DNA from: Eubacteriales bacterium | GTDB lineage: Bacteria > Bacillota > Clostridia > Oscillospirales > CAG-382 | Length of the DNA stretch: 64,000 nt | Direction of reading: 5' to 3' | Assembly (NCBI GenBank): GCA_045536535.1 | Contig: JAZSNS010000019.1 | Coordinates: 18,826 to 82,825 of the forward strand | Part shown: in pieces, positions 20,860-62,694 of the stretch | How the letters are laid out: every line of letters starts with the position of its first letter | How positions within the stretch are numbered: position 1 is the stretch's first letter | Position numbers and translations under genes: made by a program | Notes under the pieces: model-generated | The model's input: the letters and a program-made list of their open reading frames with translations, nothing else | Told to the model about the DNA's origin: nothing | Database searches by the model: none

Positions 20860-20881
20860 ATCCAAAGAGAATGTAAAATTT

Positions 20882-22241: not shown

Positions 22242-22733
22242 GTGAAGAAATTTATCATTCCGCTTGTCATCGTTGCGCTTTGTCTTGCGTTGATTCCCGT
22301 TGCGGCGATGAACACGTTTGCGGAGGGTGGTTCTGACGAGGTTTCTATCCCCGACAACACGCTTATTGATTACGGTTATCTTAAAACCTTTAAAGAACAG
22401 CTCAGGCAGGAACTCATCGAAGAACTTACTGCTTCGGGCGGAATTACCGTCAACACCACTTATGAAGACGTTTCCTTGAAGGAAGGTCAATTCATAATAC
22501 TTTCGCCCGACAGCGAAGTCATCTATCGCGGCGGCGGCGCGGTCGTTATTTCCTCGTCGAACGCCGAGAACGAAGGCATTACCGATATGTCAAAAGGCAC
22601 CGAACTTTTTTCGGGTGAGTCTTTGGAATACGGACATATCTATTACGCATCGGCGACCGAATCAAAAAAAGCAGTGCTCGTCACAGGCAGCAAGGCATAT
22701 TTTACGGTAAGGGGAAGTTATGAGATCGTTTAA
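22242..22733 (+). CDS. Secreted hypothetical protein
   Basis: GTG start preceded by AAGGAGAG. Signal peptide KKFIIPLVIVALCLALIPVAAMNTFA. Overlaps the next gene by 14 nt. Confidence 0.6.
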   Translation: MKKFIIPLVIVALCLALIPVAAMNTFAEGGSDEVSIPDNTLIDYGYLKTFKEQLRQELIEELTASGGITVNTTYEDVSLKEGQFIILSPDSEVIYRGGGAVVISSSNAENEGITDMSKGTELFSGESLEYGHIYYASATESKKAVLVTGSKAYFTVRGSYEIV

Positions 22734-34934: not shown

Positions 34935-34963
34935 TTGACTTTGTGCATGCGATTTTGTATAAT
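34935..34963 (+). promoter_or_regulatory. sigma-A-like promoter (TTGACT-17-TATAAT)
   Basis: TTGACT at 34935-34940 and TATAAT at 34958-34963. Confidence 0.6.
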
Positions 34964-34991
34964 ATACAAAAATAAAACAAAGGAGATTATT

Positions 34992-37250
34992 ATGAAATTT
35001 ACAAAAAGATTTCTCGCGTTTGTTCTCGCGGCGTTGATGCTCGTTTCTGTTTGCGTCGTGGTCGTTTCCGCTGAATCTTACGTTCTCGGTGACGTTACAC
35101 GCGACGGAAAAATCAACGCAAGAGACTACATTAAGGTAAAACGTCATTGCCTTAAAACCACGACTCTTACCGATGAAGAGTTTAACCTTGCTGACATTAA
35201 CCGCGACGGCAGGGTAAATGCTCAGGACTACATCAAAATCAAGCGTCATTGTCTCGGCACAGCCATCATTGAAAACACTTTGTTCTCAATGACTCCTCAG
35301 GGCGATGTCGTTGAAATCGACGATAACGTTTATTATCAGTATTACACCGTTCAGAGCGGCGAAGCAAATCGCACCGAAACCGTTGTTTCGATGGAATTTG
35401 ACCCTGCTGACGGTTATATCCCGATGGTATTCTCGGGTCAGGCATGTAATTATTGGGATTACGATTCGGGCATCCTCTCTACGCAATATGATATCGCTAC
35501 CCAGAAATACGGTTATGACGTAGTAGGTGTTATCAACGGCTCGTTCTTCTCGATGGACACCGCTTATGGTCAATACGGTCTTCTTAACGGAAATATCATT
35601 TCCAACGGCAAGGTCGTTTCCGCACATGCAGGCCACTATGATACAGTTGTTGCTTTCGATTCGGACGGCAGCATGAATTTTGTCAACAGCCAGCTTGAAT
35701 TCAAACTGTTCCTCGGCGGCAAGGAAGTGCCCAACGGTATTTATTACATCAACAAGCACTCCGGCCATTTGAACGGAGCTAACTGGAGCAACAGATTCTA
35801 TTATTTCGATACCTCTTGCGGCAGCAACGCCACGACCTATGCTGTATGCCCGGGTTACGAAGTGGTTTGCGAAAAGGTAAACAACTCCGAACTTGCTGTC
35901 GGCGATATGCTTTACGGCAGAATTATCGAAATCAAAGAAAATTCCTACGGCACTGCTCTTTCGGACGGCGAATACGATATGTCCGATAAGTTCGTTCTCT
36001 TCGTAGCTGACGATTCGCCTTATGCAAGTTATGTCGAAGACCTTGTTTTAGGTGACATCGTTAACATTCAGGTTAACGAAACCGTTGCGGCTTCCAAAGA
36101 AATCATGGAAAACGCAAACAGCGTTATCCCCAACGTCGGCTTCCTCGTTAAGGACGGCGTTGACCAGACTCAGATCAAATCCACGATCGGCACTCACGAC
36201 GTTACTCTCGCTGCTCGTTGGACTGCATTCGGTCAGAAGGCAGACGGCTCTTACGTATTCTTCACCTCCGAAGGCGGCTCTACCGGCGAAACCAGCAGAT
36301 CGATCACCCTCCGCGACGTTGCGAAGTTCATGATCGAAAAGGGCTGCGTTAACGTTATCCGTATGGACGGCGGCGGATCGAGCGCAATGTACGTTAAAGA
36401 CACCGGCGACGGCGAACCCGGTTATCTCCAAAGCAGCACTCGCGACGTTGGCGACTGTATCCTCGTTGTCAAGGCCGACAGCACCAAGAGCGAAGACCTT
36501 GAAAACATTCTTTCTGCCAGAATAGCCGAAGCAAAAGCTATCGTTGCAAGCGAACCCAACGCAACTATTTCTGCCGCAATCGCAGAAGCAGAAGCGATTC
36601 TCGCGCTTGACAACCCCGTTTCGGGCGATGTTCGCCGCGAAATCTGCGACCTTGATGATGCTATGTCCGGCAGAGACAGAATCGCTGATCTTATCGAGCA
36701 GGCAAACGGCGTTAAATTCACCGAATTCAGCGTTACAAACCTCGATGCTCTCCGCAATGCTTATGCGGACGCGGTTGCGGCTCTTAACGCTCCCGACGTT
36801 ACATATGGAGAATCGAAATATATCTGCGATACTCTCGAAGCGCTTCTTGAAACCAAAGGCGAAGGCGAACTTGTTGAAAACGGCATTTTCATCACCGGCT
36901 TCAACAGCTCCATTCTCGCAGGCGATGCCACCATTTTCACTCCCGATTTCGGCGAGATCTCTCACTCTACCGCAAACCACAAATGGACGCAGAACATGAT
37001 TCTCACCTGGGATGATTTGATGGGCGGTTATGTCGTTACCGAAATGTTCCATGGCAACGGCGATGCAAAGACGGTCAACCTCGAAGAAAATCAGTTGTTC
37101 ATCGCGCTTCACCGGGACAGCTCTGTTCCCGACAGCATTCCCAATATGGACGCATTCAGTCAGGCAACCGTAGGCCAGAGACTTATTATCAACGGCATCG
37201 ACATTGAAAATAAGACGATCGGCTTCCTCGCTTATATTAAATTTGTATAA
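34992..37250 (+). CDS. Secreted dockerin-bearing phosphodiester glycosidase (NAGPA/DUF2233-like) with a C-terminal unassigned module
   Basis: Start MKFTKRFLAFVLAALMLVSV at 34992 with GGAG upstream. Dockerin pair GDVTRDGKINARDYIKVKRHCL and ADINRDGRVNAQDYIKIKRHCLG. NAGPA-like GVINGSFF...RWTAFGQKADGSYVFFT...IRMDGGGSSAMYV. Confidence 0.75.
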   Translation: MKFTKRFLAFVLAALMLVSVCVVVVSAESYVLGDVTRDGKINARDYIKVKRHCLKTTTLTDEEFNLADINRDGRVNAQDYIKIKRHCLGTAIIENTLFSMTPQGDVVEIDDNVYYQYYTVQSGEANRTETVVSMEFDPADGYIPMVFSGQACNYWDYDSGILSTQYDIATQKYGYDVVGVINGSFFSMDTAYGQYGLLNGNIISNGKVVSAHAGHYDTVVAFDSDGSMNFVNSQLEFKLFLGGKEVPNGIYYINKHSGHLNGANWSNRFYYFDTSCGSNATTYAVCPGYEVVCEKVNNSELAVGDMLYGRIIEIKENSYGTALSDGEYDMSDKFVLFVADDSPYASYVEDLVLGDIVNIQVNETVAASKEIMENANSVIPNVGFLVKDGVDQTQIKSTIGTHDVTLAARWTAFGQKADGSYVFFTSEGGSTGETSRSITLRDVAKFMIEKGCVNVIRMDGGGSSAMYVKDTGDGEPGYLQSSTRDVGDCILVVKADSTKSEDLENILSARIAEAKAIVASEPNATISAAIAEAEAILALDNPVSGDVRREICDLDDAMSGRDRIADLIEQANGVKFTEFSVTNLDALRNAYADAVAALNAPDVTYGESKYICDTLEALLETKGEGELVENGIFITGFNSSILAGDATIFTPDFGEISHSTANHKWTQNMILTWDDLMGGYVVTEMFHGNGDAKTVNLEENQLFIALHRDSSVPDSIPNMDAFSQATVGQRLIINGIDIENKTIGFLAYIKFV

Positions 37251-49630: not shown

Positions 49631-51130
49631 ATGAATCTGAAACGTTTTCTTTCAATATTGGTTTGTCTTGTTTTGTGTTCCTCGATGTTGCTCGTTTCGT
49701 GCAGCGACAAAAAGGAAGAAGAAATGGACAAAGGCGAACTTGTCGGCGAATGGATTGATAAATATACCGATCTTGCCGAATTCAAATGGGAAGACCGTGA
49801 TGAGTTTCACATTTTGATTTCCGACGATAAGGCCGACCCGACATATTTCTGCGAAGACGTTGTGCCCGACCTTTATTCGACGACCGACAACCTTCTTAAC
49901 GAAGCGGTTGCAACGCGTAACGACGAAATTTTCAGCCGTTACGGAGTTACGATCAAAGCAACCACAACCAACAGCGTTAAAAGCGACCTTGAAAAAGACC
50001 GCGCCGCAACGCTCAATACCTATGACGCTGCGCTTCCTTTTGTTCGTGAGGCAACTTCTCTTGCCGAAGGCGGATATCTTTATGACCTCAACGACGATAT
50101 TTTTGACGGTTATATTCATCTTGATCAGAAATGGTGGGACCAGAAAGCGACCGAATCTTTCTCGATCGGCAACCACCTCTATTTCACGACGGGCGATATC
50201 TCGATAATGCCCAAAATCGTTTCGACGGCGATCACCTTCAACAAGAAGATGCTCGAAACCTATTTCGGCGATGAAAATATGCTTTATGATGCTGTCAGAA
50301 ACAAAACCTGGACATTTGACAAAATGGTCGAAATGGCAACCGAAGTCACCTCTGATACCGATGGCAGAGCAGGCATGACTTTTGAAGACACTTGGGGCCT
50401 TTCCGGTTCTTATCAGGATATCAATACCTTCTTCATCGGTTCGGGCAGAAATTTCGTTGTCAAGGATGGCGACGATCTCCCTGTTCTTGTTATTGAACAG
50501 ACCGCTTCGGTCAACGTTGCGGGCAAACTTCTCGAAGAACTTCAAAAACCCAACACCTGGGTATGGCATTGCGACACAGTGACTGACGGTACTCAATGGG
50601 TCAAATCGCTCGACATCTTCGGCCAAAACCGCGCTCTTTTCAGAACCAGCGCATTCTCTGCTATCAAGAAACTCCGCGCTTATACCGATGCCGAGGAGTT
50701 CGGAATCATTCCTCTTCCGCTTGTCACCGAAGAGCAGGATTCTTATTACACCTCTTGCGGCGCAACCATGGCGTTTGCTGCCGTTATCCCCGCTTCGCTC
50801 AGCACCGAAGAGGCACAGTTCTCTGCATATATTCTTGACGCAATGGCGTTCGGCGGTATGAAGCACATCACTCCCGCTTATTATGAGACCACTCTTAAAC
50901 ACCGCGATCTGCGTGACTCGGAATCCGAGGAAATGCTTGACAACTATATTTTCAACAACATCGTTTATGACCTTGGTGTCGTTTATAACTTCGGCAACAT
51001 CACCGGCATCATGACAAATGTAATGACGTTGAAAAAGACCTCGATCGCTTCCGATATCCAAACTAATAAAAACGTTATTCAGGCGGCGATCGACGATTGC
51101 GTCGAGGCGTTCGAAAAACACGCTCAATAA
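49631..51130 (+). CDS. Large lipoprotein, extracellular solute-binding-protein-like (orphan; paralogue of 60343-61806)
   Basis: Lipobox LVLCSSMLLVSC. Blocks shared with the paralogue: WWDQ, TGDIS/CGDIN, RDSESEEML/RDSESEKML. No adjacent permease or ATPase genes. Confidence 0.7.
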   Translation: MNLKRFLSILVCLVLCSSMLLVSCSDKKEEEMDKGELVGEWIDKYTDLAEFKWEDRDEFHILISDDKADPTYFCEDVVPDLYSTTDNLLNEAVATRNDEIFSRYGVTIKATTTNSVKSDLEKDRAATLNTYDAALPFVREATSLAEGGYLYDLNDDIFDGYIHLDQKWWDQKATESFSIGNHLYFTTGDISIMPKIVSTAITFNKKMLETYFGDENMLYDAVRNKTWTFDKMVEMATEVTSDTDGRAGMTFEDTWGLSGSYQDINTFFIGSGRNFVVKDGDDLPVLVIEQTASVNVAGKLLEELQKPNTWVWHCDTVTDGTQWVKSLDIFGQNRALFRTSAFSAIKKLRAYTDAEEFGIIPLPLVTEEQDSYYTSCGATMAFAAVIPASLSTEEAQFSAYILDAMAFGGMKHITPAYYETTLKHRDLRDSESEEMLDNYIFNNIVYDLGVVYNFGNITGIMTNVMTLKKTSIASDIQTNKNVIQAAIDDCVEAFEKHAQ

Positions 51131-51147
51131 AAACATAAAAGGCAAAT

Positions 51148-51176
51148 AAAAAAGAACCGCTTTGGTTCTTTTTTAT
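51148..51176. terminator. Bidirectional Rho-independent terminator
   Basis: AAAGAACC-GCTTT-GGTTCTTT flanked by an A-run and a T-run. Overlaps the stop of the minus-strand giant gene. Confidence 0.72.
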
Positions 51177-54100
51177 TTGCCTTTTTGTGTCGAGATGAAC
51201 AGACCGATCGAACCGAAAGCGATCAGCGACAAGATCACGGCGACGATTGCCGTTATCGCTCTGTCGTCTTTGATGTCGGGCGAACTGTATTCGGGGATCA
51301 AAGAAACGTTTATCTTGTAGATCATGGTTTCGCCGTCAGGCGTCACGACGGTGATCTCAATAACTTTCGGCACGCCGTAAAGTTTTGTATCCCCGATTAT
51401 GACTTCCGCTGTCGGGTTCTGAGCCGAGCAGAAAATGTTGATTTTTGAGGTCCTGCGCGGAACCGAAATGCTGTATTCCGTGATATCGGGAGAGAACGCG
51501 GGATTGAGTTTGAAGCCTTCGATTTCAAGCGATGAGAGCCGGCAGTTCGTGTCAAACACAGGCTCTTTTCTGCGTGAGACCTTGATGGTGTAGAAAGATG
51601 AACTTCCGTCTTCATCGTTGCGCCGAACAATGACAGTTGAAGCTCCCGAATCCGGAACGACAAGCCCCGAAACCGAAACGGTTTGGTTTTCTTCGTGAGA
51701 AACTTTGACATCTGCGAGCGCGCTGTCGTAAGGGATCGTGACTTCATATTCATACTTTTCGGGGTCGAATTTGAAGGAATCGGCGTTAAGGATATCGATC
51801 CCGAACTCTCCGTGAGTTTGTCGATTCACTTTGAACTTTTTGTTTTCAAATTTGACAACACGTGCGCCGTCGGGGAACGAAACGGTGATTCCGTCGGAGG
51901 AAACCGCGAGGGTTTCGGTTGCGTTTTCGGCAACCCTGAACCGAAGCGTTATCAGCGTTTTGAATGCCTTTCCGCAGGATTCGCCGTTTTCACCGTAAGC
52001 ATAGAAACAGATTTCGTTTTCGTTGTCGCGGAATCCGACTTCCCAACCCGTGCTCTCGCCTTCGATGAATTCAAGCCCTTTCGGATATCGAACCGCTCCG
52101 CTTGCGCCGAGGGCATATTTACAGCCGCCGAGGCAGATAACGACATCGATCGTATCTCCGCGTTCGATATAAGAAACCGTTTGTGCGGTTGTGTTGCCGA
52201 AAAGGTTTTTGCTCGGTGTTCCGAGCGGTGTTTGATCGCGGCGGAGGAGAACATTCCTCAGCGCGCGGTAATCGTTATCGGCGACAACGCCGTTTTTGTT
52301 CATGTCTGCCGAAGCATAAAATTCGGCGGGATAATCATATCCGCGAAGAATACGTTCGTGAACGTAAAGGTCATAAGCCGAGATGCAACCGTCGCCGTCG
52401 GTATCGCCGGTGACAACGGCGATCAGTTCGTCGGAGGGAAGACCGTCTTTATAAAGAATGATCTTATAACCGGTCGCGATAAACCCGTTTGCGTTCTTGC
52501 CGTTGGGAAGAACGATATCGACCGATTTGCCGCCTTTGAACATCTTTTCAACGGCCGAAACGTCAGTTCCTGCGGCGAACCCGAGAGCCAAGCCTCGGTC
52601 GCGATCGACGGTGATACCGCTGTCGTCGGGGAAGGTCAAAAGGTCGTCGCGAACCGTGATGACCGCTTTTGCGGTGAATCTGCCGTAATCGGTGTTGACG
52701 GTTGCGGTGACTGTGTATTTACCTACGGCGAGCGCTGTGACCTCGCCGTTTTCGTTGATTTTGATCCCTTTCGAGTCGCATTTGAAACTGACGGGCAGCG
52801 ACGATGCGCCTTCGGGCAGGTATCTGACTCTGAGAGATACCGTCTCGCCGACAGACATGATTCTGTCAGCGACAAGGAACTCGATTTTTGAGATTTTGGA
52901 TTCGACTTTGAATTTCAAAGAAACGCTGTTGCCGCAAGGGAGCGAGATCATGAAGATATGTTCGCCCGCAAGGGTCACCGAACTTCCCGAATCGAAAGGT
53001 TTGCCGTCAAGATAACCGATACCTCGACTGTATGATATCGGTGCGCTGCCGAGATAAACCCCGCCGTCTTCAACACCCGTGATTTCGGGAACAAGGGTGA
53101 TTTCGCTTCCGTCACCGTATGAACATATCGAGATAATGCCGTTTCCGATCGTGATCGCCGAGTTGTCGGGTGCGATCGTTGCGATTTCTGCGAAAACACC
53201 GACGTTACCGATATAACGGTTGAGATCAAGCCCGAAAACTCCGTTTTTGGTTATAACTGTGTTCCCGCGAAAAGCAAGAACTTCGGTGCCAAGCGTGATT
53301 TTTTCGCTGAGTTGGTCACCGAGGAAAACCTCTTTTCCGACAGCAACGCCGTTGCCGATATAAAGGCTTTCTCCGTTTGCCGTTATTCTGCGAACACGGC
53401 TGAGCGATTTGTTGTAAACCGAAAGAGCGTTTCCGTCAAGGACGTAAATATATTCATTGTCTGCGGCCGCCGAATCCGCGCTGATGCTCGTTGCCGAAAC
53501 CGCTCCGCCGCCGACGGGGCAATAGGCAAGTCTGCCGTTTGAAACGGCATAAAGACGACCGTCAAACGCGAACGCGGAGTCGCAATTCGATGCAAATTCG
53601 ATATAATCGCCGTTTTCCGCATCATCAACAGGCGCGAGATAAACGAAAGGCGAGTTTTCAAAAGCGACCGCAACTCGGTCTTCCGAAACCGAGATGCTTT
53701 TCGGCGCAAATTTCAAAGGAACGGGCAGGTTTTCTTCGAGAGAGCTGTTGTTGAAACTGTAAATCGAATTTTTGTTGCCGAAAATCAAAAACGTCGTTTC
53801 CGATGAAGCGGCGACCGAAATCGGTTCTGAATAAACGTCATAAAAAAGATGATCGCGGTAAGCGTTGATGGTTTCGGATTTTGAAACGGCTCGGTCGAGC
53901 CTTTCCGCCGCACCGTAGGCGGCGATGCCTTCGGCACCGTTTTTGATTATTGCGAACGTCTTTTCAAATCCGAAAAGATATACCGCATCGTTCCCGACAA
54001 CCATATCCGACACCGAGAAAGGAAAACTGCCGAGTTCTGTGCCCGATGAGATATCAATAAGCCCGCTTTCGGTGAAAAGAATGCCGTCCTCGATCATTAA

Positions 54101-56566
54101 TGCGGCATTGGAAGCGAATTCAAGAATCATTTCTCCGGTTGCGAGGTCAAAAAGCCGATTTCCGACAGCAAAATGATCATCATCGAAATAGAGATTCATT
54201 CCGATGAGCGGGGTGCTGACGTTCAGCGAGATTTGGTCGGATGTGTTAACGTTGTAAAAACGGGCAACGCCGTCATCCTCTTTCGAAACAAGACAGAAAA
54301 CACCGTTTGAATAAAGCGCCGATTCGCAATCGAACCCGAGTTCGGACAGCAATTCGGTTTCGCCGCTTTCGATATCGAGCGCATAAATGCTCTCGTTTCC
54401 GAAGCAGTAGGCGGTTCCGTCTTCAAAAGCGTAATACAGCATTCCTTCGACAGAAACCGTCGATACGATCGCAGGTTCGCCGTCAAGCACGGTTGATCGG
54501 TCGAGAACCGTAATGCCCGCATCACCGACAAGGATCAGGTTTTCGCCGACGAATTCGTGAGAATAAATCCGACCGAGAGGAAGAAAATGAATGTATTTTT
54601 CGGGGGAGCCGATATCATAAATTCTTGCGCCGACGAGAGAATCACCATAAAGGCACATATAGCCGTTTTCTTCATCGACCGCCGCCGATGCGTCGGCAAG
54701 GTCCGAGCCGATTATCTCGGCAAAGGGAAAGTTGATTTCAAAAGAGTAGGTCTCGGTTTTTGCACCGTTTCCGCTCCTGACGGTGAGGAGATGCTTTCCG
54801 TTTTTCGCAACTGCGGTTTCGCCGTAAATTTCTTTTCCGTCGAGCGTTGCGCTTCCGTCGCCGACGATTCTGATATCGACCGGCGCGTTATAAACTCCGC
54901 CGTTTTCGATCCCGTAAACCGTCGGGAGAGTATATTGCAGATAGATTTCCTTTTCGAGAGCCTCGTCGCCGTCGGCAAGGGTGAAATAATGCCTGCCCGA
55001 AGAGGTGATTCTGTCACCCGAGTTGTAGGGAAATCCGTCGAGAGTGGCTGTTCCGCGTGAAAATTCAAAATATGAAAACCCGGCAAATTCTTTGAATTTG
55101 TAATCAAGAGGGTCATAGTTCAGCCTGAATACAATGGTGCGCGAAAAATCACCGTCGGTCACTTCAAGCAGGTGTGTTCCGTTTGAAAAGACCGTTTCGC
55201 CGTCTTCAATAGGCTCGCCGTCGAGGATCGCAGTTCCTCTGTTGAAGCCGATGCGAACGCTGTTGTTATATCTTCCGTTGTTTACAACGCCCGTGATTAT
55301 CGGTTCGAGCGATTTGTTGACGATCTGCTCGGCGTTGATGATTCCATATCCGAATTCATCGTCGCGTTTGCTTCCGAGACAGTTGATTATCAGCGCGAGG
55401 AATTCGTCGTTCCCGAATCTTGCCGAACCGTCGATTTGCGAAGCCGCAAGCGCGGCGATCCCGCTCACGAACGCGCAGGAATAACTTGTGCCCGAATCGT
55501 AGCGGTAGACGGATCTTCCGTCTTCGACGAAGGGCATCGGAATGTTTTCGCCGTATGCGGCAACGTCAACGGCATCGTTGAATTGCGAGAAAGCACTTCT
55601 TTCTCCGTTTTCGTCGCAGGATGCAACAGATATAACCCCTTCGTAAGACGCAGGATAACTTTTTTGGTCGGCATAAGGACGGTTTCCTCCGTTGCCCGCC
55701 GCCGAGATGAGAATACAACCTTTTGAGATGGCATAATCGATCGCGTCTTGCTCGGCATAAGAGGACGAATAACCGCCGACAGACATGTTGATGATCTTTG
55801 CGCCTGCATCTGCCGCGAAACGAATGCCGGAAATCAGGTCGGAGGAATAGATCGTGGTGCCGCTCGAAGAAACTTTGACCGGCAAAACGGTGACGCCGTG
55901 AGCAATCCCCGCAATACCGACGTTGTTGTCGGCGGTCGCGGCGATAAGACCGATAACCCCCGTTCCGTGTCCCGCTTCGTCTCCTTTCACGCCTGCCGTG
56001 CGAAGAACCGCATCATATCCTGCGAGTATCTTTGCGTCTTTAAGGTCTTCATGAGAGCGGTCCACGCCGGTATCGAGAACAGCAACAATAACTTCCGACG
56101 ATGCTTTAACGGTGTTCCAAACTTTATAAACGCCGAGCGGTTCATAGGCGGGAACAGTTGCGGGGTCGTTGGTCGTTGCGAGCGTTCCGCGAATCAGGTC
56201 GGGTTCGTAATAATCAATGATTTCTTCGTTTGTTTTGAGAAAGCTCTCGCTTTCGGGAACAACCGCAAAAAGCCGTTGTTCGCTTTCGGCGAGAATGCGG
56301 TAAGGCGTGCTCCCAAGCGCGCGTTCGATTTCGGAAAGCGAAGCGCTTTGTTTGAATTTGACGATAAACCGCTCTCCGTCCGGGAGTTTTTCCTGCCCCT
56401 TTTGGTTCGGCGTTTCTTCGCCCAGCGCGTAATAAAGCGAGTTTTCCCGATTTTCATCAGAAACATCAAAAGGCGATTTGGGCGCAAAAAGAACACTGCC
56501 TGCCGCAATCACGACGGGCAGAATCAGCAGTGTTATTAAAATTGCCGAAACCGTTCTTTTTGTCAT
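51173..56566 (-). CDS. Giant (1797 aa) multidomain subtilisin-like S8 serine protease. Its segments, in order, are a propeptide, repeat modules, a propeller-like region, Big_2, a dockerin, a cohesin-like module, a cadherin-like module and a C-terminal TM.
   Basis: Catalytic triad contexts VAVLDTGVD, HGTGVIGLIAA and SGTSYSCAFVSGIAAL. Big_2-like VGETVSLRVRYLPEGA...VTALAVGKYTVTATV. Dockerin GDTDGDGCISAYDLYVHERIL...ADMNKNGVVADNDYRALRNVLL. Cohesin-like GDTIDVVICLGG...AVRYPKGLEFIE...LITLRFRV. C-terminal TM AIVAVILSLIAFGSIGLFI. Confidence 0.85.
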   Translation of the reverse strand: MTKRTVSAILITLLILPVVIAAGSVLFAPKSPFDVSDENRENSLYYALGEETPNQKGQEKLPDGERFIVKFKQSASLSEIERALGSTPYRILAESEQRLFAVVPESESFLKTNEEIIDYYEPDLIRGTLATTNDPATVPAYEPLGVYKVWNTVKASSEVIVAVLDTGVDRSHEDLKDAKILAGYDAVLRTAGVKGDEAGHGTGVIGLIAATADNNVGIAGIAHGVTVLPVKVSSSGTTIYSSDLISGIRFAADAGAKIINMSVGGYSSSYAEQDAIDYAISKGCILISAAGNGGNRPYADQKSYPASYEGVISVASCDENGERSAFSQFNDAVDVAAYGENIPMPFVEDGRSVYRYDSGTSYSCAFVSGIAALAASQIDGSARFGNDEFLALIINCLGSKRDDEFGYGIINAEQIVNKSLEPIITGVVNNGRYNNSVRIGFNRGTAILDGEPIEDGETVFSNGTHLLEVTDGDFSRTIVFRLNYDPLDYKFKEFAGFSYFEFSRGTATLDGFPYNSGDRITSSGRHYFTLADGDEALEKEIYLQYTLPTVYGIENGGVYNAPVDIRIVGDGSATLDGKEIYGETAVAKNGKHLLTVRSGNGAKTETYSFEINFPFAEIIGSDLADASAAVDEENGYMCLYGDSLVGARIYDIGSPEKYIHFLPLGRIYSHEFVGENLILVGDAGITVLDRSTVLDGEPAIVSTVSVEGMLYYAFEDGTAYCFGNESIYALDIESGETELLSELGFDCESALYSNGVFCLVSKEDDGVARFYNVNTSDQISLNVSTPLIGMNLYFDDDHFAVGNRLFDLATGEMILEFASNAALMIEDGILFTESGLIDISSGTELGSFPFSVSDMVVGNDAVYLFGFEKTFAIIKNGAEGIAAYGAAERLDRAVSKSETINAYRDHLFYDVYSEPISVAASSETTFLIFGNKNSIYSFNNSSLEENLPVPLKFAPKSISVSEDRVAVAFENSPFVYLAPVDDAENGDYIEFASNCDSAFAFDGRLYAVSNGRLAYCPVGGGAVSATSISADSAAADNEYIYVLDGNALSVYNKSLSRVRRITANGESLYIGNGVAVGKEVFLGDQLSEKITLGTEVLAFRGNTVITKNGVFGLDLNRYIGNVGVFAEIATIAPDNSAITIGNGIISICSYGDGSEITLVPEITGVEDGGVYLGSAPISYSRGIGYLDGKPFDSGSSVTLAGEHIFMISLPCGNSVSLKFKVESKISKIEFLVADRIMSVGETVSLRVRYLPEGASSLPVSFKCDSKGIKINENGEVTALAVGKYTVTATVNTDYGRFTAKAVITVRDDLLTFPDDSGITVDRDRGLALGFAAGTDVSAVEKMFKGGKSVDIVLPNGKNANGFIATGYKIILYKDGLPSDELIAVVTGDTDGDGCISAYDLYVHERILRGYDYPAEFYASADMNKNGVVADNDYRALRNVLLRRDQTPLGTPSKNLFGNTTAQTVSYIERGDTIDVVICLGGCKYALGASGAVRYPKGLEFIEGESTGWEVGFRDNENEICFYAYGENGESCGKAFKTLITLRFRVAENATETLAVSSDGITVSFPDGARVVKFENKKFKVNRQTHGEFGIDILNADSFKFDPEKYEYEVTIPYDSALADVKVSHEENQTVSVSGLVVPDSGASTVIVRRNDEDGSSSFYTIKVSRRKEPVFDTNCRLSSLEIEGFKLNPAFSPDITEYSISVPRRTSKINIFCSAQNPTAEVIIGDTKLYGVPKVIEITVVTPDGETMIYKINVSLIPEYSSPDIKDDRAITAIVAVILSLIAFGSIGLFISTQKGK

Positions 56567-56570
56567 TCTT

Positions 56571-57320
56571 TTATCTTTCGTTTCTTTCGCCGAAACGGGC
56601 GTAAATATTTTTCAATTCCTCGGTTTCCGAAGAATGTGTCCGGTCTTTATAGATGATAAGGTCGTTTTCATAGATCAAGCCTTCGCGTGCGTCCTTTTTT
56701 CCTTCGACAAGCACAAGAGAGGGTTTTTTGCCCTCCGAGGGGACGACGGCGCGCAGCCTTTTCGGCTCGATACCGTTGTCGCGCATGGCGCAGAGAAGTG
56801 TGACGAGCCTGTCGGGACGGTAAACGGCAAAAAACTGACCGCCGCTTTTCAAACACCAAGATGCCGCTTTGCAAAACAACTCGGCGCCGCCGCTTACCTC
56901 GCGCCTTGCGATCGCAAGCGAGAGCGAATCGTTGCTTTTTCCGCAATCGTCGCGCATGTAAGGTGGATTTGTTATGCAGTAATCGGCTTTGCCGCATTCA
57001 AAAAGAGTTCTGTGGTCAGCCGCGTCGCCGCAGATAACTTTGAATCTTTCCGAAAAACCGTTTTCTTTGGAATTTTCGGCGGCAATGCCCGCATGCTCCG
57101 GTTGGAGTTCAAGCCCGACGAAATCGGCTTTGCTTCCCGCAGAGAGAAGCAAAAGCGGAATAACGCCCGAGCCCGTGCCGAGATCGATGCAGGTTCCGCG
57201 CCGAATCGAATCGGCGGCGAAATCGGAAAGCAAAAGCGCATCTGTTCCGAAACGAATCCCGCCGCCGGGCTCTTTTAAACTTATGCCGGCGTTTATTTTT
57301 GTGTCGGTTATATCTATCAT
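56571..57320 (-). CDS. SAM-dependent N6-adenine methyltransferase, tRNA1(Val) m6A37 (TrmN6/YfiC)-like
   Basis: SAM motif DLGTGSGVIPLLL and catalytic NPPY (CITNPPYM). Confidence 0.72.
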   Translation of the reverse strand: MIDITDTKINAGISLKEPGGGIRFGTDALLLSDFAADSIRRGTCIDLGTGSGVIPLLLLSAGSKADFVGLELQPEHAGIAAENSKENGFSERFKVICGDAADHRTLFECGKADYCITNPPYMRDDCGKSNDSLSLAIARREVSGGAELFCKAASWCLKSGGQFFAVYRPDRLVTLLCAMRDNGIEPKRLRAVVPSEGKKPSLVLVEGKKDAREGLIYENDLIIYKDRTHSSETEELKNIYARFGERNER

Positions 57321-57474
57321 AATGGTTTTTCCGTTAAAAAACTGTAATTCTTTGTCGAATGCATTGAAACATCATCCGCCCCCAGAAAAACCCGGTTTTT
57401 CGGGGAGGGTGAAGCGACAAAAACAATAATGCGCCCACAGGAACCTGTGAACGCATTAAGGTTTAAGCCCTAAA

Positions 57475-57648
57475 TTACGCCTGAGGAGCGTCTACGGGGC
57501 AAACGCCTGCACAGGCGCCGCAATCAATGCAGAGTTCTGCATCGATGATGTACTTGCCGTCGTCGGCGACGGTGATAGCGCTAACGGGGCATTCAGCCTC
57601 GCAGGTGCCGCAACCGATGCAAGTTTCGTTGTTGATAGAATATGCCAT
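57475..57648 (-). CDS. 2x[4Fe-4S] ferredoxin
   Basis: GGAGG lies 8 nt before the ATG at 57648 (MAYSINNETC). CIGCGTCEAECP and CIDCGACAGVCP. Confidence 0.88.
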   Translation of the reverse strand: MAYSINNETCIGCGTCEAECPVSAITVADDGKYIIDAELCIDCGACAGVCPVDAPQA

Positions 57649-57756
57649 GGGAAACACCTCCGATTAATATTACATATGATAATATCATAACTTTTTATGA
57701 AATTCAATAGGTTATTCGACACTTTTAGATAAAAGTTATTTCCAAATTTGAAATTT

Positions 57757-59043
57757 TCATCCAAAGGTTTTTTCAAGCGCCGATTTTATGTCGTTCATGA
57801 TGTCATCGATATCCTCGATCCCGACCGAAATGCGGATGAGACCTGCATCAATACCTGCCGCAACGAGCATTTCGTCGCTCAACTGACGGTGAGTCGAACT
57901 TGCGGGGTGAAGAACGCAGGAATGAACCGTTGCAACGTGGACCGCGTTGACGAACATCGAAAGCGAATTCATGAACTTTTCTGCTTTTTCTCTGCCGCCC
58001 TTGATGCAGAACGAGACAACGCCGCTCGTGCCTTTGGGGAGATATTTTTTCGCGAGAGCGTTGTATCTGTCGCTTTCAAGCGCAGGATAATTGACATATT
58101 CGGCATAGCCGCTGTCTTCAAGGAACTTCGCGACTTTGTAAGCGTTTTCGCAATGACGCGCAAGGCGAACGTCGAGCGTTTGGATGCCGAGGTCGAGAAG
58201 AAACGCGGCTTGTGCGGTCGGATAAACGCCGAGGTCGCGGACAAGCTGAACACGCATTTTCGTGATATAAGCGAGTTTTCCGAACGATTCGGTATAAATC
58301 AAACCGTGATAGGAATCGTCGGGAGTGCAGAGCCCTTGGAACTTGTCATTTTGAGTCCAGTCAAAGTTGCCGCTGTCGATAACACAGCCGCCGAGTTGGA
58401 CAGCGTGACCATCCATATATTTCGAGGTGGAAAGAACAACGATGTCCGCGCCGAAATCGATAGGCCTGCAAAGCACACCCGTCGCAAAGGTGTTGTCAAC
58501 GATAAGAGGGATGCCCGCCTCGTGCGCAACGCTCGCGATACGTTCGATATCAAAAACCGAAAGCGCGGGGTTTGCAATGGTCTCTCCGAAGATGAGTTTT
58601 GTATTCGGTTGGATGAGATTTTTGAGTTCTTCGCTCGGAATGTCCTGATCGAAGAAGGTGCAATCGATGCCGAACCGTTTGAGAGTCACGGCGAAAAGGT
58701 TTGTTGTGCCGCCGTAGATCTTTGAAGACACGAGAATATGGTCGCCCGCAGATGCGATATTCGTGACAGCGAGGAAGGACGCTGCTTGACCCGAGTTGGT
58801 GCAGAGCGCGGCAACGCCGCCTTCAAGCGCGGCGATCTTTTCTTCAACGCAGGCAACCGTCGGGTTGGAAATGCGCGAGTACATATGACCGTCTGCCGTG
58901 AGGTCGAAAAGTTTTCCGATCTCTGTGGGCGAGCTGTAAGAATAGGTCGTGCTTTGATAGATCGGAAGGGCGAGCGGTTCGCCGTTTTCGGGGTGGTATC
59001 CCGAATGAATACATTGAGTTGCGGGAGAAAGTTCTTTTTTCAT
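57757..59043 (-). CDS. metY: O-acetylhomoserine aminocarboxypropyltransferase / sulfhydrylase
   Basis: IHSGY...PIYQSTTY...YSRISNPT...STSKYMDGH (PLP Lys); about 428 aa. Confidence 0.9.
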   Translation of the reverse strand: MKKELSPATQCIHSGYHPENGEPLALPIYQSTTYSYSSPTEIGKLFDLTADGHMYSRISNPTVACVEEKIAALEGGVAALCTNSGQAASFLAVTNIASAGDHILVSSKIYGGTTNLFAVTLKRFGIDCTFFDQDIPSEELKNLIQPNTKLIFGETIANPALSVFDIERIASVAHEAGIPLIVDNTFATGVLCRPIDFGADIVVLSTSKYMDGHAVQLGGCVIDSGNFDWTQNDKFQGLCTPDDSYHGLIYTESFGKLAYITKMRVQLVRDLGVYPTAQAAFLLDLGIQTLDVRLARHCENAYKVAKFLEDSGYAEYVNYPALESDRYNALAKKYLPKGTSGVVSFCIKGGREKAEKFMNSLSMFVNAVHVATVHSCVLHPASSTHRQLSDEMLVAAGIDAGLIRISVGIEDIDDIMNDIKSALEKTFG

Positions 59044-59075
59044 TTTTTATTACCTGCGATTTTTAAAACTTGATC

Positions 59076-60098
59076 TCAGCGATTGTAGCGGCCGTCGTAA
59101 TCACGAAGAGCAGCAACGCCCGACTGCCAGGTCGAGGGGTAGGTATAACGATAATATTTGTGAGAGAAAATCGTTGCAACGTGCTTTTCTGCAACGGCTT
59201 TTGTCAGGTTTGTATCGCTGATCGAAATGATCTCCGAAAACTTCGCGGCGCTTTGCGTTGCGAATTGTTGCGCAAAGAACTGCGCCATCAATTCTTTTGA
59301 AATCTCGGCATAAAGTTTGTTTTTGTTGCTTCCGACAGCATCTTTTTCGGATTCGAGAAGCCATTGAAGCTTTGTCTTGCCGTGAATCTCCGAGGTAAGA
59401 GAAACTCTTCCGCCTTCGTTTTCGATAACGAACGTGCTTTCGGCAGGCGGTTGTGATTGATCGGGAGTCGATGTGTTCTGATTGTTTTCGGGGGTGCCTT
59501 CGGGTTCGGTGGGAAGGTTTTCGTTTTCCGCTCCGGGCAACGTTATCATGACGGGGGAATTGAGAGATATAGAGGCATCGGTGATGCGCGAAGCGATGGC
59601 TCCCATGTCGCTTTTTGTGAAACGAAGGCAATAATCGGTTTGGATACCGGTAAGCGCGGTAACGCTGTCACAGATCGCCTCGTGGGACATGGTTCCGAAA
59701 GCAACGTCGATAGGAACGGGGTTGCCGATCTCGTTGGTTATCTTCGTCGATGTGGGAATCGAGCAATGGATATATCTGTTGGTTTTTGCGTTTGCGTCAA
59801 TGAAAGCGCAGTTGACAACGCGATCGCTGTCGTCAACGCAAAAAACGACGGCGGTAAAGATATCGCCTTTTTCGTTGTAATAGTTGTCGTTCAGATCGGG
59901 CGCTTGATTGTTATCGACCGAAACGTCACTGCCCGAAGTTTCGCTTGTTTCGGGGGTTGAAACGTCTTCGGGAGTGTCTTTTTTGCCGATCCCCAAAACG
60001 AGGTCGGTGAGCCACCCGCGAGCCTGAAAACCGAGGAAAGCGAAAATCACAAGACAAATTGAAAAGGTAATGAAGAAATTTTTAAATGCGGAGGACAA
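59076..60098 (-). CDS. Membrane-anchored extracytoplasmic protein, possibly a degenerate LytR-CpsA-Psr-like fold
   Basis: ORF 59076-60170. AAAGGAG lies 8 nt before the TTG at 60098 (start uncertain). N-terminal TM FFITFSICLVIFAFLGF. Loose resemblance to LCP blocks (DSDRVVNCAFID...HCSIPTST...LTGIQTDYCLRF). Confidence 0.45.
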   Translation of the reverse strand: MSSAFKNFFITFSICLVIFAFLGFQARGWLTDLVLGIGKKDTPEDVSTPETSETSGSDVSVDNNQAPDLNDNYYNEKGDIFTAVVFCVDDSDRVVNCAFIDANAKTNRYIHCSIPTSTKITNEIGNPVPIDVAFGTMSHEAICDSVTALTGIQTDYCLRFTKSDMGAIASRITDASISLNSPVMITLPGAENENLPTEPEGTPENNQNTSTPDQSQPPAESTFVIENEGGRVSLTSEIHGKTKLQWLLESEKDAVGSNKNKLYAEISKELMAQFFAQQFATQSAAKFSEIISISDTNLTKAVAEKHVATIFSHKYYRYTYPSTWQSGVAALRDYDGRYNR

Positions 60099-60342
60099 AT
60101 CCTCAACTCCTTTTTGATTGAAATCACAATTTTTCACGTTGATTATACACCAACAAAAAACATTTGTCAATTCATTGTTTCTTATATATGTTTATGAACC
60201 GACCCCGAACGAAAACACAAAAAACAAAAACCGTTTTGATGCATGCCTTGACAATTCGTGAATAATGTTTATAATATAATACTGAAAGAAAATAGGAAGA
60301 TTCTGTAAAGGATTCTTACCGTAATAAAGAAAGGAAAATATC

Positions 60343-61806
60343 ATGAAGAAATTGCTCATTTGCCTGTTGGCAATGTGTCTTCTCGTGCCGTTTCTCGTAG
60401 CGTGCGACAAGGATGACGACGGCGACAAGTCGGTTGAACTCGACGAAACTCTCACCGTTGAACCTATCGATCTCGGCGGCGATAAGATCAACGTTCTTTG
60501 CAGAGCGTTCGGCGCAGAAACAAAGTCGATTCTCGGCTACACCGGCGAAATTATTTTTGACGAAGAAAACCCCAGCACGGTTGACGAAGCAAAGAGAGAA
60601 GTGGCTGAATACATCGAAGGTGCATTCAATTGCGAAATCGTAGGAATGCAGACGACCGATTCGATCAGCGAAATCATCACACGTCAGATCACATCTAACC
60701 TTCGCGACTATGACATTTATTTCGATTCGTTCCGCAATTCCGCTCAAATCGCGACTGCGGGCTATTCGCTCGATCTCAATCAGGTTCCCAACCTTGACCT
60801 TTCCGATTCCTGGTGGGACCAGAACGCAGTCGCAGATCTTTCGGTCAACAACAAACTCTTTTTCGTCTGCGGCGATATCAACACCTATGACGATCAGGGT
60901 ACATGGTGCGTTCTCTTCAACAAGGAACTCAAAAACACTCTTAACATCGAAGAAGATTTCTATGAACTTGCCGATAGCGGCAAATGGACTTTCGAAAAGT
61001 TCACTGAGATCTGTGCCGAAAGCGGCGCAACGCTTGACTTGACCGGCAACGGACAGGACGAACACGACAGATGGGCGTTCGGTACCGAAACCTACAACCT
61101 TTACGTTCATGCGGTTGCGGCAGGTTACAAGATCGCTCAGAAGGACGAAAGCACAGACCTTCCTTATCTCACCATCAACAAACAGCCTTCCGGCACCTAC
61201 AAGGTTCTTCAAGACGCTGTTGATTTCTATTCCAGCAAAGACGTTATGGTTGCCAACGGCGGCAAATATACTTATGACAACGTTTGGGAAGAAACCGTAC
61301 ATAAGGCATTTATCGAAGGCCGCGAACTTTTCTACATGTGCGGTCTTATCAACGTTGCTTCCTTCCGTCAGATGGATGACGAATTCGGCATTCTTCCCGT
61401 TCCGAAGTTCTATGACACGCAGGACAGATATTATCACACCGTTTCGGTCGATAACTCTTCCTTCATGTTCCTCCCGATCAACATCGCTGATGACGAACTT
61501 GCAAAACTCGGCACAGTTATCTCCGCTATCGCAGAACTTTCTCAGAAAAAAGTTACTTATGCTTACAGAGAAGTTCAGCTCAAATACCGCGATGCGCGTG
61601 ACAGCGAATCCGAAAAGATGCTTGAAATCATCTTTGGCACCCGTACCTTCGACCTCGGCTGTGCATTCAACTGGGGCGGAATCCTTGACGAATACATGAA
61701 ACTTTCCGGCTCGCCCGAATCTAACTTCTCGGCGATCAAGACCAAGGCTCAGACCGAAATGGAAAAAACCATTGAGAAACTGAAACTTGACGAAAAGGCC
61801 GAATAA
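60343..61806 (+). CDS. Large lipoprotein, extracellular solute-binding-protein-like (orphan; paralogue of 49631-51130)
   Basis: Lipobox LLVPFLVAC. Collinear conserved blocks with the 49631-51130 product. No adjacent transporter genes. Confidence 0.7.
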   Translation: MKKLLICLLAMCLLVPFLVACDKDDDGDKSVELDETLTVEPIDLGGDKINVLCRAFGAETKSILGYTGEIIFDEENPSTVDEAKREVAEYIEGAFNCEIVGMQTTDSISEIITRQITSNLRDYDIYFDSFRNSAQIATAGYSLDLNQVPNLDLSDSWWDQNAVADLSVNNKLFFVCGDINTYDDQGTWCVLFNKELKNTLNIEEDFYELADSGKWTFEKFTEICAESGATLDLTGNGQDEHDRWAFGTETYNLYVHAVAAGYKIAQKDESTDLPYLTINKQPSGTYKVLQDAVDFYSSKDVMVANGGKYTYDNVWEETVHKAFIEGRELFYMCGLINVASFRQMDDEFGILPVPKFYDTQDRYYHTVSVDNSSFMFLPINIADDELAKLGTVISAIAELSQKKVTYAYREVQLKYRDARDSESEKMLEIIFGTRTFDLGCAFNWGGILDEYMKLSGSPESNFSAIKTKAQTEMEKTIEKLKLDEKAE

Positions 61807-61848
61807 CACATAACGGTTCCGCATCAGCGGAAGAGAGGCAGGCTCGTT

Positions 61849-62694
61849 TTGGGCGTTTTTGAAGCAATTATTTACGGAATAATTCAAGGCATCGCCGAAT
61901 TTTTGCCGATATCAAGTTCGGGGCATCTCGCGTTGGCGCAGAATATTTTCAGCGCAAACACCGAAAATGCCGACCATTTCGCGTTCAACATCGCGCTTCA
62001 CCTTGCGACGTTGGTCTCGGTTTGCGTGGTCTACCGTAAAGACGTGCTCGCGCTCATCAAAGGTTGCTTCTCGTTAATCAAAAAACTTTTCACCGGCAAA
62101 ATAAAATCGGGGCTCGACAAGGGCGAAAAGATGTTTCTGATGCTTTGCGTCGCAACGCTTCCGCTCGTTCCCGTTAAATTGCTCGGTCTGGACGATGCCG
62201 TTGAGGCGCTGAGCGGTTTCAGCTGGGCGATCGGCATTCTCCTCATCATCAACGGAATAATGCTTGTTATAAGCGACCGCCTCCGCGACGGAGGAATCAC
62301 CGCCGAAAACGGCGGATTCCTCCGCCCTTTGGGGGTTGGTGTTATGCAAGCGCTTCTGGGCGTTATGCCCGGTATTTCCCGCTCGGGTTCAACGATCACG
62401 GGCGGCAAGATCTTCGGTTTTTCCCGCGAGGAAGCCGTTAGATTTTCTTTCCTCATGTCTATCCCCGCGATTATCGGCGCATGCGTTGTTGAATTGCCCG
62501 AATTTTTCGAGAAAAGCGTCGGGATCGAAATGCTCGCTCCCGTCCTTGCGGGCGCGGTGACTGCGGCTGTGGTGGGATTTTTCGCCATCAAGCTGCTCCA
62601 ATATCTTACAAAAAACAAAAGTTTTACTTTCTTTGCGGTCTATTGCATCGTTATCGGTGTTGCCGCAATCGTAGCGGACATTTTCTTTGTTTAA
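61849..62694 (+). CDS. uppP: Undecaprenyl-diphosphate phosphatase
   Basis: GIIQGIAEFLPISSSGHL and PGISRSGSTI motifs. TTG start. Confidence 0.92.
   Translation: MGVFEAIIYGIIQGIAEFLPISSSGHLALAQNIFSANTENADHFAFNIALHLATLVSVCVVYRKDVLALIKGCFSLIKKLFTGKIKSGLDKGEKMFLMLCVATLPLVPVKLLGLDDAVEALSGFSWAIGILLIINGIMLVISDRLRDGGITAENGGFLRPLGVGVMQALLGVMPGISRSGSTITGGKIFGFSREEAVRFSFLMSIPAIIGACVVELPEFFEKSVGIEMLAPVLAGAVTAAVVGFFAIKLLQYLTKNKSFTFFAVYCIVIGVAAIVADIFFV

Follow-up and report, generated by a model that had tools for sequence, protein, structure and literature searches.

Cohesin-dockerin pairs are the textbook case of enzymes being assembled outside the cell, and protein engineers have reused them widely. Among surface proteases of the subtilisin (S8) family, lactocepin PrtP and the streptococcal C5a peptidase ScpA, both cell-envelope proteinases of Gram-positive bacteria, are very large, multi-domain enzymes with an N-terminal propeptide, a PA-domain insert, a beta-sandwich stalk, Fn-type domains and LPXTG/sortase attachment; to our knowledge, they carry no propellers, dockerin or cohesin. 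Dockerin-bearing S8 and cysteine peptidases occur in C. cellulovorans, R. flavefaciens, R. bromii and Limousia (PMC12484212, PMC3573020, PMC4611034, PMC12997984), and the X82 cohesins of C. perfringens NanJ (GH33) and NagJ (GH84C) are examples of a single cohesin placed inside an enzyme and not in a scaffoldin (PMC12997984). One starch enzyme is known to combine a cohesin with a dockerin; no protease has been described with both. The closest precedent for the protease reported here is Amy4 of the Ruminococcus bromii amylosome, a GH13 amylase with both modules, the cohesin of which binds the enzyme's own dockerin, suggesting multimerisation (PMC4611034; Ze et al. 2015).

The window (the whole 64 kb stretch of DNA that was analysed) carries a gene for a membrane-tethered S8 protease in which a dockerin and a cohesin-fold module, both genuine, occur together, an arrangement conserved throughout the protein family. 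The initial annotation, made from the sequence alone, had proposed a string of domains running from an N-terminal signal and propeptide to a C-terminal membrane helix, and the list and its order proved almost entirely correct in Pfam searches, family profiles and AF2 models. The features of the locus, given in the direction of transcription, are as follows.

56571..57320, (-), small MTS-type methyltransferase gene (Pfam), ending 4 nt before the protease start
51173..56566, (-), complete protease gene, 1797 aa, ATG start, stop codon included (ORF list)
56486..56566, (-), N-terminal signal peptide or signal anchor, aa 1-27 (hydrophobic segment in 111/117 orthologues)
56162..56389, (-), propeptide-like region, aa 60-135, weakly I9-like (profile match to proteinase K precursor)
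55343..56098, (-), Peptidase_S8 catalytic domain, aa 157-408, with D165, H200, N292 and S361 (Pfam E 4e-45)
54731..55297, (-), three tandem beta-sandwich repeats of about 60 aa, aa 424-612 (HMM; all-beta in the AF2 model)
53939..54721, (-), beta-propeller 1, aa ~616-876, limits approximate (AF2, Foldseek)
53123..53857, (-), beta-propeller 2, aa ~904-1148, limits approximate (AF2, Foldseek)
52901..53086, (-), ~60-aa repeat, copy 4, aa 1161-1222 (HMM)
52691..52858, (-), Big_2 domain, aa 1237-1292 (Pfam 23.5 bits, cut-off 22.8)
52412..52669, (-), conserved module directly N-terminal to the dockerin, aa ~1300-1385 (conservation)
52244..52408, (-), dockerin, aa 1387-1441; Ca-binding loops DTDGDGCISAYD and DMNKNGVVADND (Pfam, alignment, AF2)
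51824..52195, (-), cohesin-fold module of a divergent, non-cellulosomal type, aa ~1458-1581 (orthologue Pfam matches, profile, AF2/Foldseek)
51569..51778, (-), cadherin-like beta-sandwich 1, aa ~1597-1666 (PF12733, 27.5 bits, isolated segment)
51305..51538, (-), cadherin-like beta-sandwich 2, aa 1677-1754 (PF12733, E 1e-10)
51194..51259, (-), C-terminal transmembrane helix, aa ~1770-1791, ahead of a short basic tail (hydrophobic segment in 117/117 orthologues)
51139..51183, (.), bidirectional terminator-like hairpin with a 20-bp stem, located where the protease gene and the convergent gene 49631-51130 meet

Judged by its described architecture, Amy4 resembles this protein in joining a single cohesin and a single dockerin to a catalytic module in one secreted polypeptide, and its host, which is non-cellulolytic, likewise belongs to the gut Clostridia. 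The two differ in the enzyme (S8 protease here, GH13 amylase in Amy4) and in the order of the modules, since the dockerin precedes the cohesin here whereas in Amy4 the cohesin is followed by a C-terminal dockerin; Amy4 also lacks the TM anchor, the propellers and the cadherin-like domains. The peptidases that carry dockerins in cellulosome, amylosome and mucinolysome systems share the link between a protease and a dockerin in gut or rumen Clostridia but are described with a dockerin only, as enzymes recruited by scaffoldins, without a cohesin of their own or a membrane anchor.

The initial annotation had named a broken or frameshifted gene as one of the observations that would count against it. 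The open reading frame is intact over its 1797 codons, and 117 full-length orthologues from independent assemblies (1759-1872 aa, 31-58% identity) align with it collinearly and with few gaps, which shows that it is not an assembly artefact. The presence of internal repeats and the origin of the sequence in a metagenome-assembled genome might still suggest an artificially long ORF pieced together from repeats, an annotation error or a pseudogene, but the chance of this is negligible: the catalytic residues are invariant in the orthologues, the genomic neighbourhood is conserved, and the repeats share only distant similarity and are therefore little prone to misassembly. Together with the orthologue alignment, these observations effectively refute an artefact. 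The methyltransferase gene is the conserved upstream neighbour and is present at orthologous loci (56-31% identity), a synteny that indicates vertical inheritance of the protease as a core gene. In public data the family comprises 308 sequence clusters. Close homologues of the protease, and of TrkA, are named only as MAGs of 'Clostridia / Ruminococcaceae / Eubacteriales bacterium', and a scan of genome contigs with the single protease sequence returned an unrelated Winogradskyella S8 protease as its sole match. The protein is a real and widely conserved enzyme of subtilisin type, predicted to sit on the cell surface, from uncultured gut or rumen Clostridia.

The S8 domain is the best-conserved portion of the protein in the alignment of the 117 orthologues. 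PF00082 matched the whole protein at aa 157-408 with 154.7 bits (gathering cut-off 21.8), and D165 (VLDTG), H200 (GHGT) and S361 (GTSYS), the catalytic triad recognised at first reading, are each invariant in 117/117 orthologues, as is the oxyanion-hole residue N292 (AAGN). The I9-like propeptide that had been suggested ahead of this domain is weakly supported. A family profile of the region found residues 37-107 of the proteinase K precursor as its best PDB match (E 0.005), while the I9 inhibitors 1itp and 1v5i scored only E ~0.5, and the Pfam I9 model (PF05922) gave no match N-terminal to the S8 domain in the query or in 30 orthologous segments. Hydrophobic segments conserved at both ends of the family agree with the signal or anchor and the C-terminal TM helix initially proposed. 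Two more specific assignments of the enzyme were considered and rejected. The model for mycosin, the T7SS-associated S8 protease (TIGR03921), scored 177.5 bits, below its NCBIfam equivalog cut-off of 278.75. A lactocepin-type cell-envelope proteinase was rejected because Pfam found no PA domain and the C-terminus consists of a TM helix and basic tail with no LPXTG motif. The protease does resemble PrtP and ScpA as a very large, multi-domain S8 enzyme with a beta-sandwich stalk, and differs from them in its TM-helix anchor, in having no PA domain or LPXTG motif, and in its propellers, dockerin and cohesin.

Between the catalytic domain and the dockerin lies a long series of modules, most of them beta-rich. 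At least four repeats of about 60 aa had been noticed from the sequence, and four were found (aa 424-484, ~501-541, 549-612 and 1161-1222), which detect each other in HMM searches (iE 1e-5 to 1e-14). A propeller had been suspected from a stretch of ~40-aa repeats, with structure prediction as the proposed check; the AF2 model (pLDDT 91.3, about 28 short strands) predicts a tandem double beta-propeller, and the best Foldseek matches are tandem-propeller proteins. The Big_2 domain, just above its Pfam cut-off in the query, scores 24.5-36 bits in orthologues, and the single cadherin-like segment first described corresponds to two PF12733 domains. The conserved module at aa ~1300-1385 had no match in Pfam or the PDB, whether searched as a single sequence or as a 28-sequence profile. 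Its comparison with the pre-dockerin region of a deacetylase encoded elsewhere in the window gave no support for a likeness.

The dockerin, placed initially at about 52230-52420, was recovered at 52244-52408. Dockerin_1 (PF00404, cut-off 22.9) scored 21.1 bits in the whole protein and 28.2 bits in the isolated segment, with 17-35 bits in orthologues. The module has the duplicated build of a dockerin: in each of its two segments a helix comes after an EF-hand-like Ca2+ loop (pattern DxDxDGxIxxxD). Five loop aspartates (alignment positions D13, D17, D24, D46 and D57) are invariant in 55 diverse orthologues, and the AF2 model (aa 1376-1585) shows three helices at the canonical positions after the loops (model residues 22-32, 39-45 and 55-65).

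The cohesin-like module, first located at about 51880-52200, was confirmed by an indirect route at 51824-52195. PF00963 found no match in the query at E<=10, either in the whole protein or in the segment, and the segment's sequence, searched directly against the PDB, returned nothing relevant. The same Pfam model matched 24 of 74 orthologous segments (best E 8e-8), and in orthologues P0086 and P0105 the scores of 27.9 and 29.3 bits exceed the gathering score of 24.1, with the cohesin directly after the dockerin. A profile built from the 74 sequences gave 11 PDB matches, of which 9, including the best two, are cohesins. The AF2 model containing the module has a pLDDT of 95.8, and the four best Foldseek matches are all cohesins (2vo8, with TM 0.82 and rmsd 2.1, then 2xdh, 2jh2 and 2w1n), with type II and type III cohesins ranked after them. 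Because orthologue scores, PDB profile matches and predicted fold agree, the cohesin is established despite the absent Pfam match in the query. The structures nearest to it are the C. perfringens X82 cohesins (2vo8, 2jh2 and 2w1n; TM 0.74-0.82), which also gave the best full-length profile alignments; these share only 15-18% identity with the module and, unlike the protease, belong to secreted glycoside hydrolase toxins that are not TM-anchored. The second-best structural match, found in the profile search as well, is the non-cellulosomal cohesin 2xdh of Archaeoglobus fulgidus (21% identity), which comes from an organism without a cellulosome, in this case an archaeon, and lacks any protease context.

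The dockerin and cohesin are adjacent throughout the aligned family; gap columns make up only 0-4% of the region, and the linker of about 17 residues is conserved. AF2 predicts that aa 1376-1585 form a single rigid didomain (pTM 0.89, linker pLDDT ~95) in which the two modules would touch in cis. This rigid arrangement favours a dedicated self-pair, acting in cis or head-to-tail, over the recruitment of other enzymes. In APC-corrected mutual information, the split of the family into two clades swamped any signal between the columns of the dockerin and those of the cohesin. Both modules might instead be structural relics, Ca2+-stabilised spacers of the stalk that have no specific recognition of each other. 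Their Pfam scores are weak, they stand in a row of further spacers with a beta-sandwich fold (Big_2, the cadherin-like domains, the ~60-aa repeats), and the Foldseek list for the cohesin also includes non-cohesin beta-sandwiches (9ifr, an integrin and YcnI). This explanation appears improbable, however, as the modules are always retained together and adjacent, the aspartates of the Ca loops are invariant, and the ordered linker and confidently predicted didomain imply a selected interface.

It was originally envisaged that the two modules would allow either self-oligomerisation or the recruitment of other dockerin enzymes, making the protein a protease-centred display hub. The co-occurrence of dockerin and cohesin stands, and self-association of the protease through its own modules is reasonable by analogy with Amy4, but a display hub goes beyond the evidence. 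A scaffoldin or hub needs several cohesins on a non-catalytic protein, and the protease is catalytic and has one cohesin, so that each molecule can have at most one partner by this route. A more modest version, in which the protease is a node in a heterologous network, has its cohesin capturing another dockerin enzyme while its dockerin plugs into an anchoring cohesin. The same 64 kb encode two further dockerin proteins, a dockerin-deacetylase (2523-3680) and a dockerin-NAGPA protein (34935-37250), as well as a signal peptide, single cohesin and TM protein at 20882-21931 (20882-21934 in the initial annotation; ORF 20537-21934). The sequence of the latter had no Pfam cohesin match of its own; its relatives have 2-5 Pfam cohesins and a dockerin, and by this transitive homology the region probably does encode the cohesin initially assigned to it. 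A heterologous network with a membrane-anchored second cohesin therefore probably exists, which the protease could join, and single enzyme-borne cohesins that bind the dockerins of other enzymes are known from C. perfringens (PMC12997984) and R. bromii (PMC4611034). We nevertheless consider this role doubtful for the protease. Besides the limit set by a single cohesin, its own TM anchor makes anchoring through the dockerin redundant, the didomain model suggests that the two modules may occupy each other, and its dockerin is unlike the other two in the window, which resemble each other. The profile of the protease cohesin aligned to ORF 20537-21934 with a probability of only 2% (hhalign), the two being too divergent for a direct link. 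A private specificity fits these comparisons, because the protease dockerin and cohesin differ from the other dockerins of the window and from the 20882 cohesin.

Overall, the reading preferred here, for which we judge the chances to be about even, is of an active, cell-anchored surface protease in which dockerin and cohesin are a dedicated, co-inherited and most likely mutually recognising pair. An active subtilisin-family enzyme would be exported and held at the cell surface by its single C-terminal membrane helix, with a stalk that, from the membrane outward, would comprise the two cadherin-like sandwiches, the cohesin, the dockerin, the module at aa ~1300-1385, the Big_2 domain and one ~60-aa repeat. 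The stalk would bear the two beta-propellers, a likely platform for binding substrates or ligands, and the three further ~60-aa repeats and the catalytic domain would form the tip. Recognition between dockerin and cohesin could take place in cis, as a Ca2+-dependent clasp within one molecule that stiffens the stalk, or in trans, where neighbours bound head-to-tail would line up as arrays of protease on the membrane, similar to what has been proposed for R. bromii Amy4. The face of a cohesin that binds the dockerin is 8-3-6-5. It is conceivable, if rather unlikely, that the protease dockerin binds the cohesin of its own chain on this canonical face, giving a Ca2+-dependent and mechanically strong clasp or switch in the stalk that does not serve enzyme assembly and the opening of which could swap the modules into head-to-tail polymers. 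Were this so, it would be the first intramolecular cohesin-dockerin pair.

Surveys based on the Pfam cohesin model overlook this protease family, with no match in the query and matches in only about one third of orthologous segments, and both cohesin-bearing gut bacteria and cohesin-dockerin systems that do not act on polysaccharides are therefore probably undercounted. If the cis clasp or a self-polymerising unit is real, the protein would also be of practical interest, as a cohesin-dockerin module that is natural, compact and made of one chain. The family is large (308 clusters), vertically inherited and comes from abundant uncultured Clostridia of the rumen or gut. The occurrence of dockerin and cohesin side by side in every aligned full-length member suggests that these bacteria use the pair in surface proteolysis or in the architecture of the cell envelope.

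The open reading frame at window 51173–56566 (minus strand) is uninterrupted, with 1797 codons and an ATG start. Public protein sets hold 308 relatives of the encoded protease, of which more than 115 are full-length (1759–1872 aa, 31–58% identity) and stem from many independent assemblies (NCBI, ENA, JGI, Logan); the sole name given to any of them is 'S8 family serine peptidase [Clostridia bacterium]'. The initial annotation had allowed that so long a frame might be stitched together from repeats. Aligned with MAFFT, 117 full-length members run collinearly and nearly without gaps from end to end, which rules out such a chimera, and the chance that the frame is an artefact is negligible. In this alignment, conservation peaks in the S8 domain (query residue common to 61–76% of members) and is lowest in the propeller region (20–40%).

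A small MTS-type methyltransferase gene directly precedes the protease gene with a gap of 4 nt (3–36 nt across the window and the orthologous loci). At the other end, the stop codon overlaps a strong hairpin, apparently an intrinsic terminator acting in both directions, which separates the protease gene from a convergent gene for a solute-binding protein:

51139–51183, terminator-like hairpin with a perfect 20-bp stem and T-runs on both sides

The block of ftsK, two unknown genes, a Cys-Met PLP enzyme, ferredoxin, the methyltransferase and the protease is kept, whole or largely, in orthologous loci at 56%, 40%, 34% and 31% identity. Judged by this recurrence, the protease gene is a vertically inherited core gene of the lineage and not a mobile accessory. 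Window 56571–61887 shares with orthologous loci L002–L006 the order ~500-aa unknown protein (opposite strand), ~320-aa unknown protein, Cys-Met PLP enzyme, small ferredoxin, MTS methyltransferase and S8 protease, usually adjoining ftsK and persisting down to 31% protein identity. Close homologs of the housekeeping protein TrkA all come from MAGs named Clostridia, Ruminococcaceae or Eubacteriales bacterium, and no cultured relative was seen. A SpoIID-domain protein encoded at 22720–24348 (plus strand) suggests that the organism is a spore-former.

A whole-protein Pfam scan of the protease gave matches to four families, listed here with the repeats found by HMM:

aa 157–408, Peptidase_S8 (E = 4e-45)
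aa 424–612, three ~60-aa repeats in tandem (HMM)
aa 1161–1222, fourth copy of the ~60-aa repeat (HMM)
aa 1237–1292, Big_2 (marginally over the cut-off)
aa 1387–1441, Dockerin_1 (marginally under the cut-off)
aa ~1597–1666, cadherin-like sandwich 1
aa 1677–1754, cadherin-like sandwich 2

Much of the architecture read initially from the sequence is confirmed, including Big_2 and the cadherin-like segment, the latter in two copies. The catalytic residues D165, H200 and S361 and the oxyanion residue N292 are unchanged in all 117 orthologues, every one of which also has a C-terminal TM helix; the hydrophobic N-terminal segment, described as a signal or anchor, is found in 111. The closest NCBIfam model is mycosin, but the score is far under its cut-off, so the enzyme is classed from its sequence as a generic S8A protease rather than a mycosin. 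The proposed I9-like propeptide fared less clearly: a 30-sequence profile of aa 60–135 had the proteinase K precursor propeptide as its best PDB match (E = 0.005) and matched I9 inhibitors at E ~0.5, while Pfam I9 matched neither the query nor its orthologues, and an I9-like propeptide at this position is weakly supported. The ~60-aa repeats, predicted to number at least four, are recovered as four copies, since an HMM of any single copy finds the other three (iE 1e-5 to 1e-14). AlphaFold2 (AF2) modelling of aa 421–1232 with a 21-sequence alignment returned an all-beta structure (pLDDT 91.3, pTM 0.84), the best PDB matches of which are proteins with two consecutive beta-propellers, among them the Utp21 tandem WD (4nsx), COPB2, the Bacteroides BT4673/BT4663 sensor ectodomains and Apaf-1. 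The suspected propeller is thus modelled as a tandem double beta-propeller, and the ~28 short strands per half in the AF2 strand list point to seven blades in each.

The dockerin proposed in the initial annotation was recovered when scored as an isolated segment (28.2 bits; Pfam gathering score 22.9). Two canonical Ca2+ loops are present, DTDGDGCISAYD and DMNKNGVVADND; when 55 diverse orthologues are aligned, five Asp within these loops are the only invariant columns, and in the AF2 model three helices occupy precisely the positions expected for dockerin helices 1–3. By sequence and predicted structure, aa 1387–1441 is accepted as a true dockerin. Directly before it lies a conserved ~85-aa module (aa ~1300–1385, window 52412–52669, minus strand) with invariant V, R, G and D, for which neither Pfam nor PDB yielded a match, also when a 28-sequence profile was used.

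The claimed cohesin is absent from the query's own domain search, an outcome named beforehand as refuting it: the segment has no match in Pfam and none in PDB by sequence. Four independent lines of evidence uphold it. Cohesin is matched by 24 of 74 orthologous segments (best E 8e-8) and is the sole Pfam family matched by more than two of them. In the full-length orthologues P0086 and P0105 it scores 27.9 and 29.3 bits (gathering score 24.1), directly after Dockerin_1, the same place as the query module. When the 74-sequence profile was searched against PDB, nine of 11 matches were cohesins (A. cellulolyticus ScaB, C. perfringens NagJ, a C. thermocellum anchoring protein and the A. fulgidus cohesin). 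Lastly, the AF2 model of aa 1376–1585 (pLDDT 95.8) ranked non-cellulosomal cohesins first in Foldseek (2vo8, C. perfringens GH33, TM 0.82, rmsd 2.1), with 2xdh (A. fulgidus) and 2jh2 and 2w1n (NagJ) also leading, followed by many type II and III cohesins. On orthologue profiles and modelling, this is a divergent cohesin, non-cellulosomal and of the type carried by enzymes.

Other dockerin proteins and a candidate cohesin protein are encoded in the window:

2523–3680, plus strand, dockerin–polysaccharide deacetylase (Dockerin_1)
20882–21931, plus strand, protein made up of a signal peptide, a single domain of ~160 aa, a long linker rich in Ser and Glu, and a TM helix at the C-terminus
34935–37250, plus strand, dockerin–NAGPA phosphodiester glycosidase (Dockerin_1)

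Neither dockerin enzyme is a cellulase. The 20882–21931 protein has no Pfam match of its own, and its relatives found by exhaustive HMMER search (P0144, P0150, P0215) have between two and five Pfam cohesins together with a dockerin at the C-terminus, making it a candidate membrane-anchored single-cohesin anchoring protein. The TTG start listed at 20537 is probably spurious, and the signal peptide is consistent with a start at the ATG at 20882. Directly upstream, 19288–20859 (plus strand) encodes a protein of 523 aa that has a zinc ribbon at its C-terminus. From these genes, the organism runs a cohesin–dockerin system on non-cellulase surface proteins. The initial annotation envisaged the protease as a display hub, able to self-oligomerise or to recruit the other dockerin enzymes. 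Participation in a heterologous network of this kind is the main rival to the reading favoured below; it is possible but rather doubtful, being weakened by the single cohesin on the protease and by the predicted packing of its dockerin on that cohesin. The two modules are joined by a ~17-residue linker that contains an almost invariant Pro and is modelled at pLDDT ~95, and pTM for the didomain as a whole is 0.89. Were the linker floppy, two domains of this size (65 and 130 residues) would fall short of such a value; a fixed cis arrangement with the dockerin touching the cohesin is therefore predicted. Mutual-information analysis was uninformative on this contact. A purely structural role for the pair, without recognition, is improbable.

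The reading we favour, with about an even chance of being correct, is of an active surface protease held by its own TM helix on a long stalk, in which the two propellers would be a binding platform and dockerin and cohesin a private, co-inherited self-pair that would clasp in cis, join adjacent molecules head to tail, or do both. A self-pair is suggested because the modules constantly adjoin, the didomain is predicted to be rigid, and a dockerin anchor would be redundant beside the protein's own TM helix. Both modules also differ in sequence type from their counterparts elsewhere in the window: the dockerins of the deacetylase and of the NAGPA enzyme are alike (ARDYIxxKRxxLGT) and the protease dockerin is unlike both, while similarity between the protease cohesin and that of 20882–21931 is undetectable. 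By analogy, there is an experimental precedent in Amy4, which like the protease carries cohesin and dockerin on one enzyme, and which shows self-recognition (PMC4611034).

Peptidases with a dockerin, S8 enzymes among them, have been catalogued in cellulosomes, in the R. bromii amylosome and in the Limousia mucinolysome (PMC12484212, PMC3573020, PMC4611034, PMC12997984), and enzyme-borne single cohesins are reported in C. perfringens (PMC12997984). Open-access papers and preprints gave no description of a protease with both modules, of a dockerin-then-cohesin unit or of this protease family. The protease represents a large family that standard cohesin screens miss, and its dockerin–cohesin unit may work in cis.
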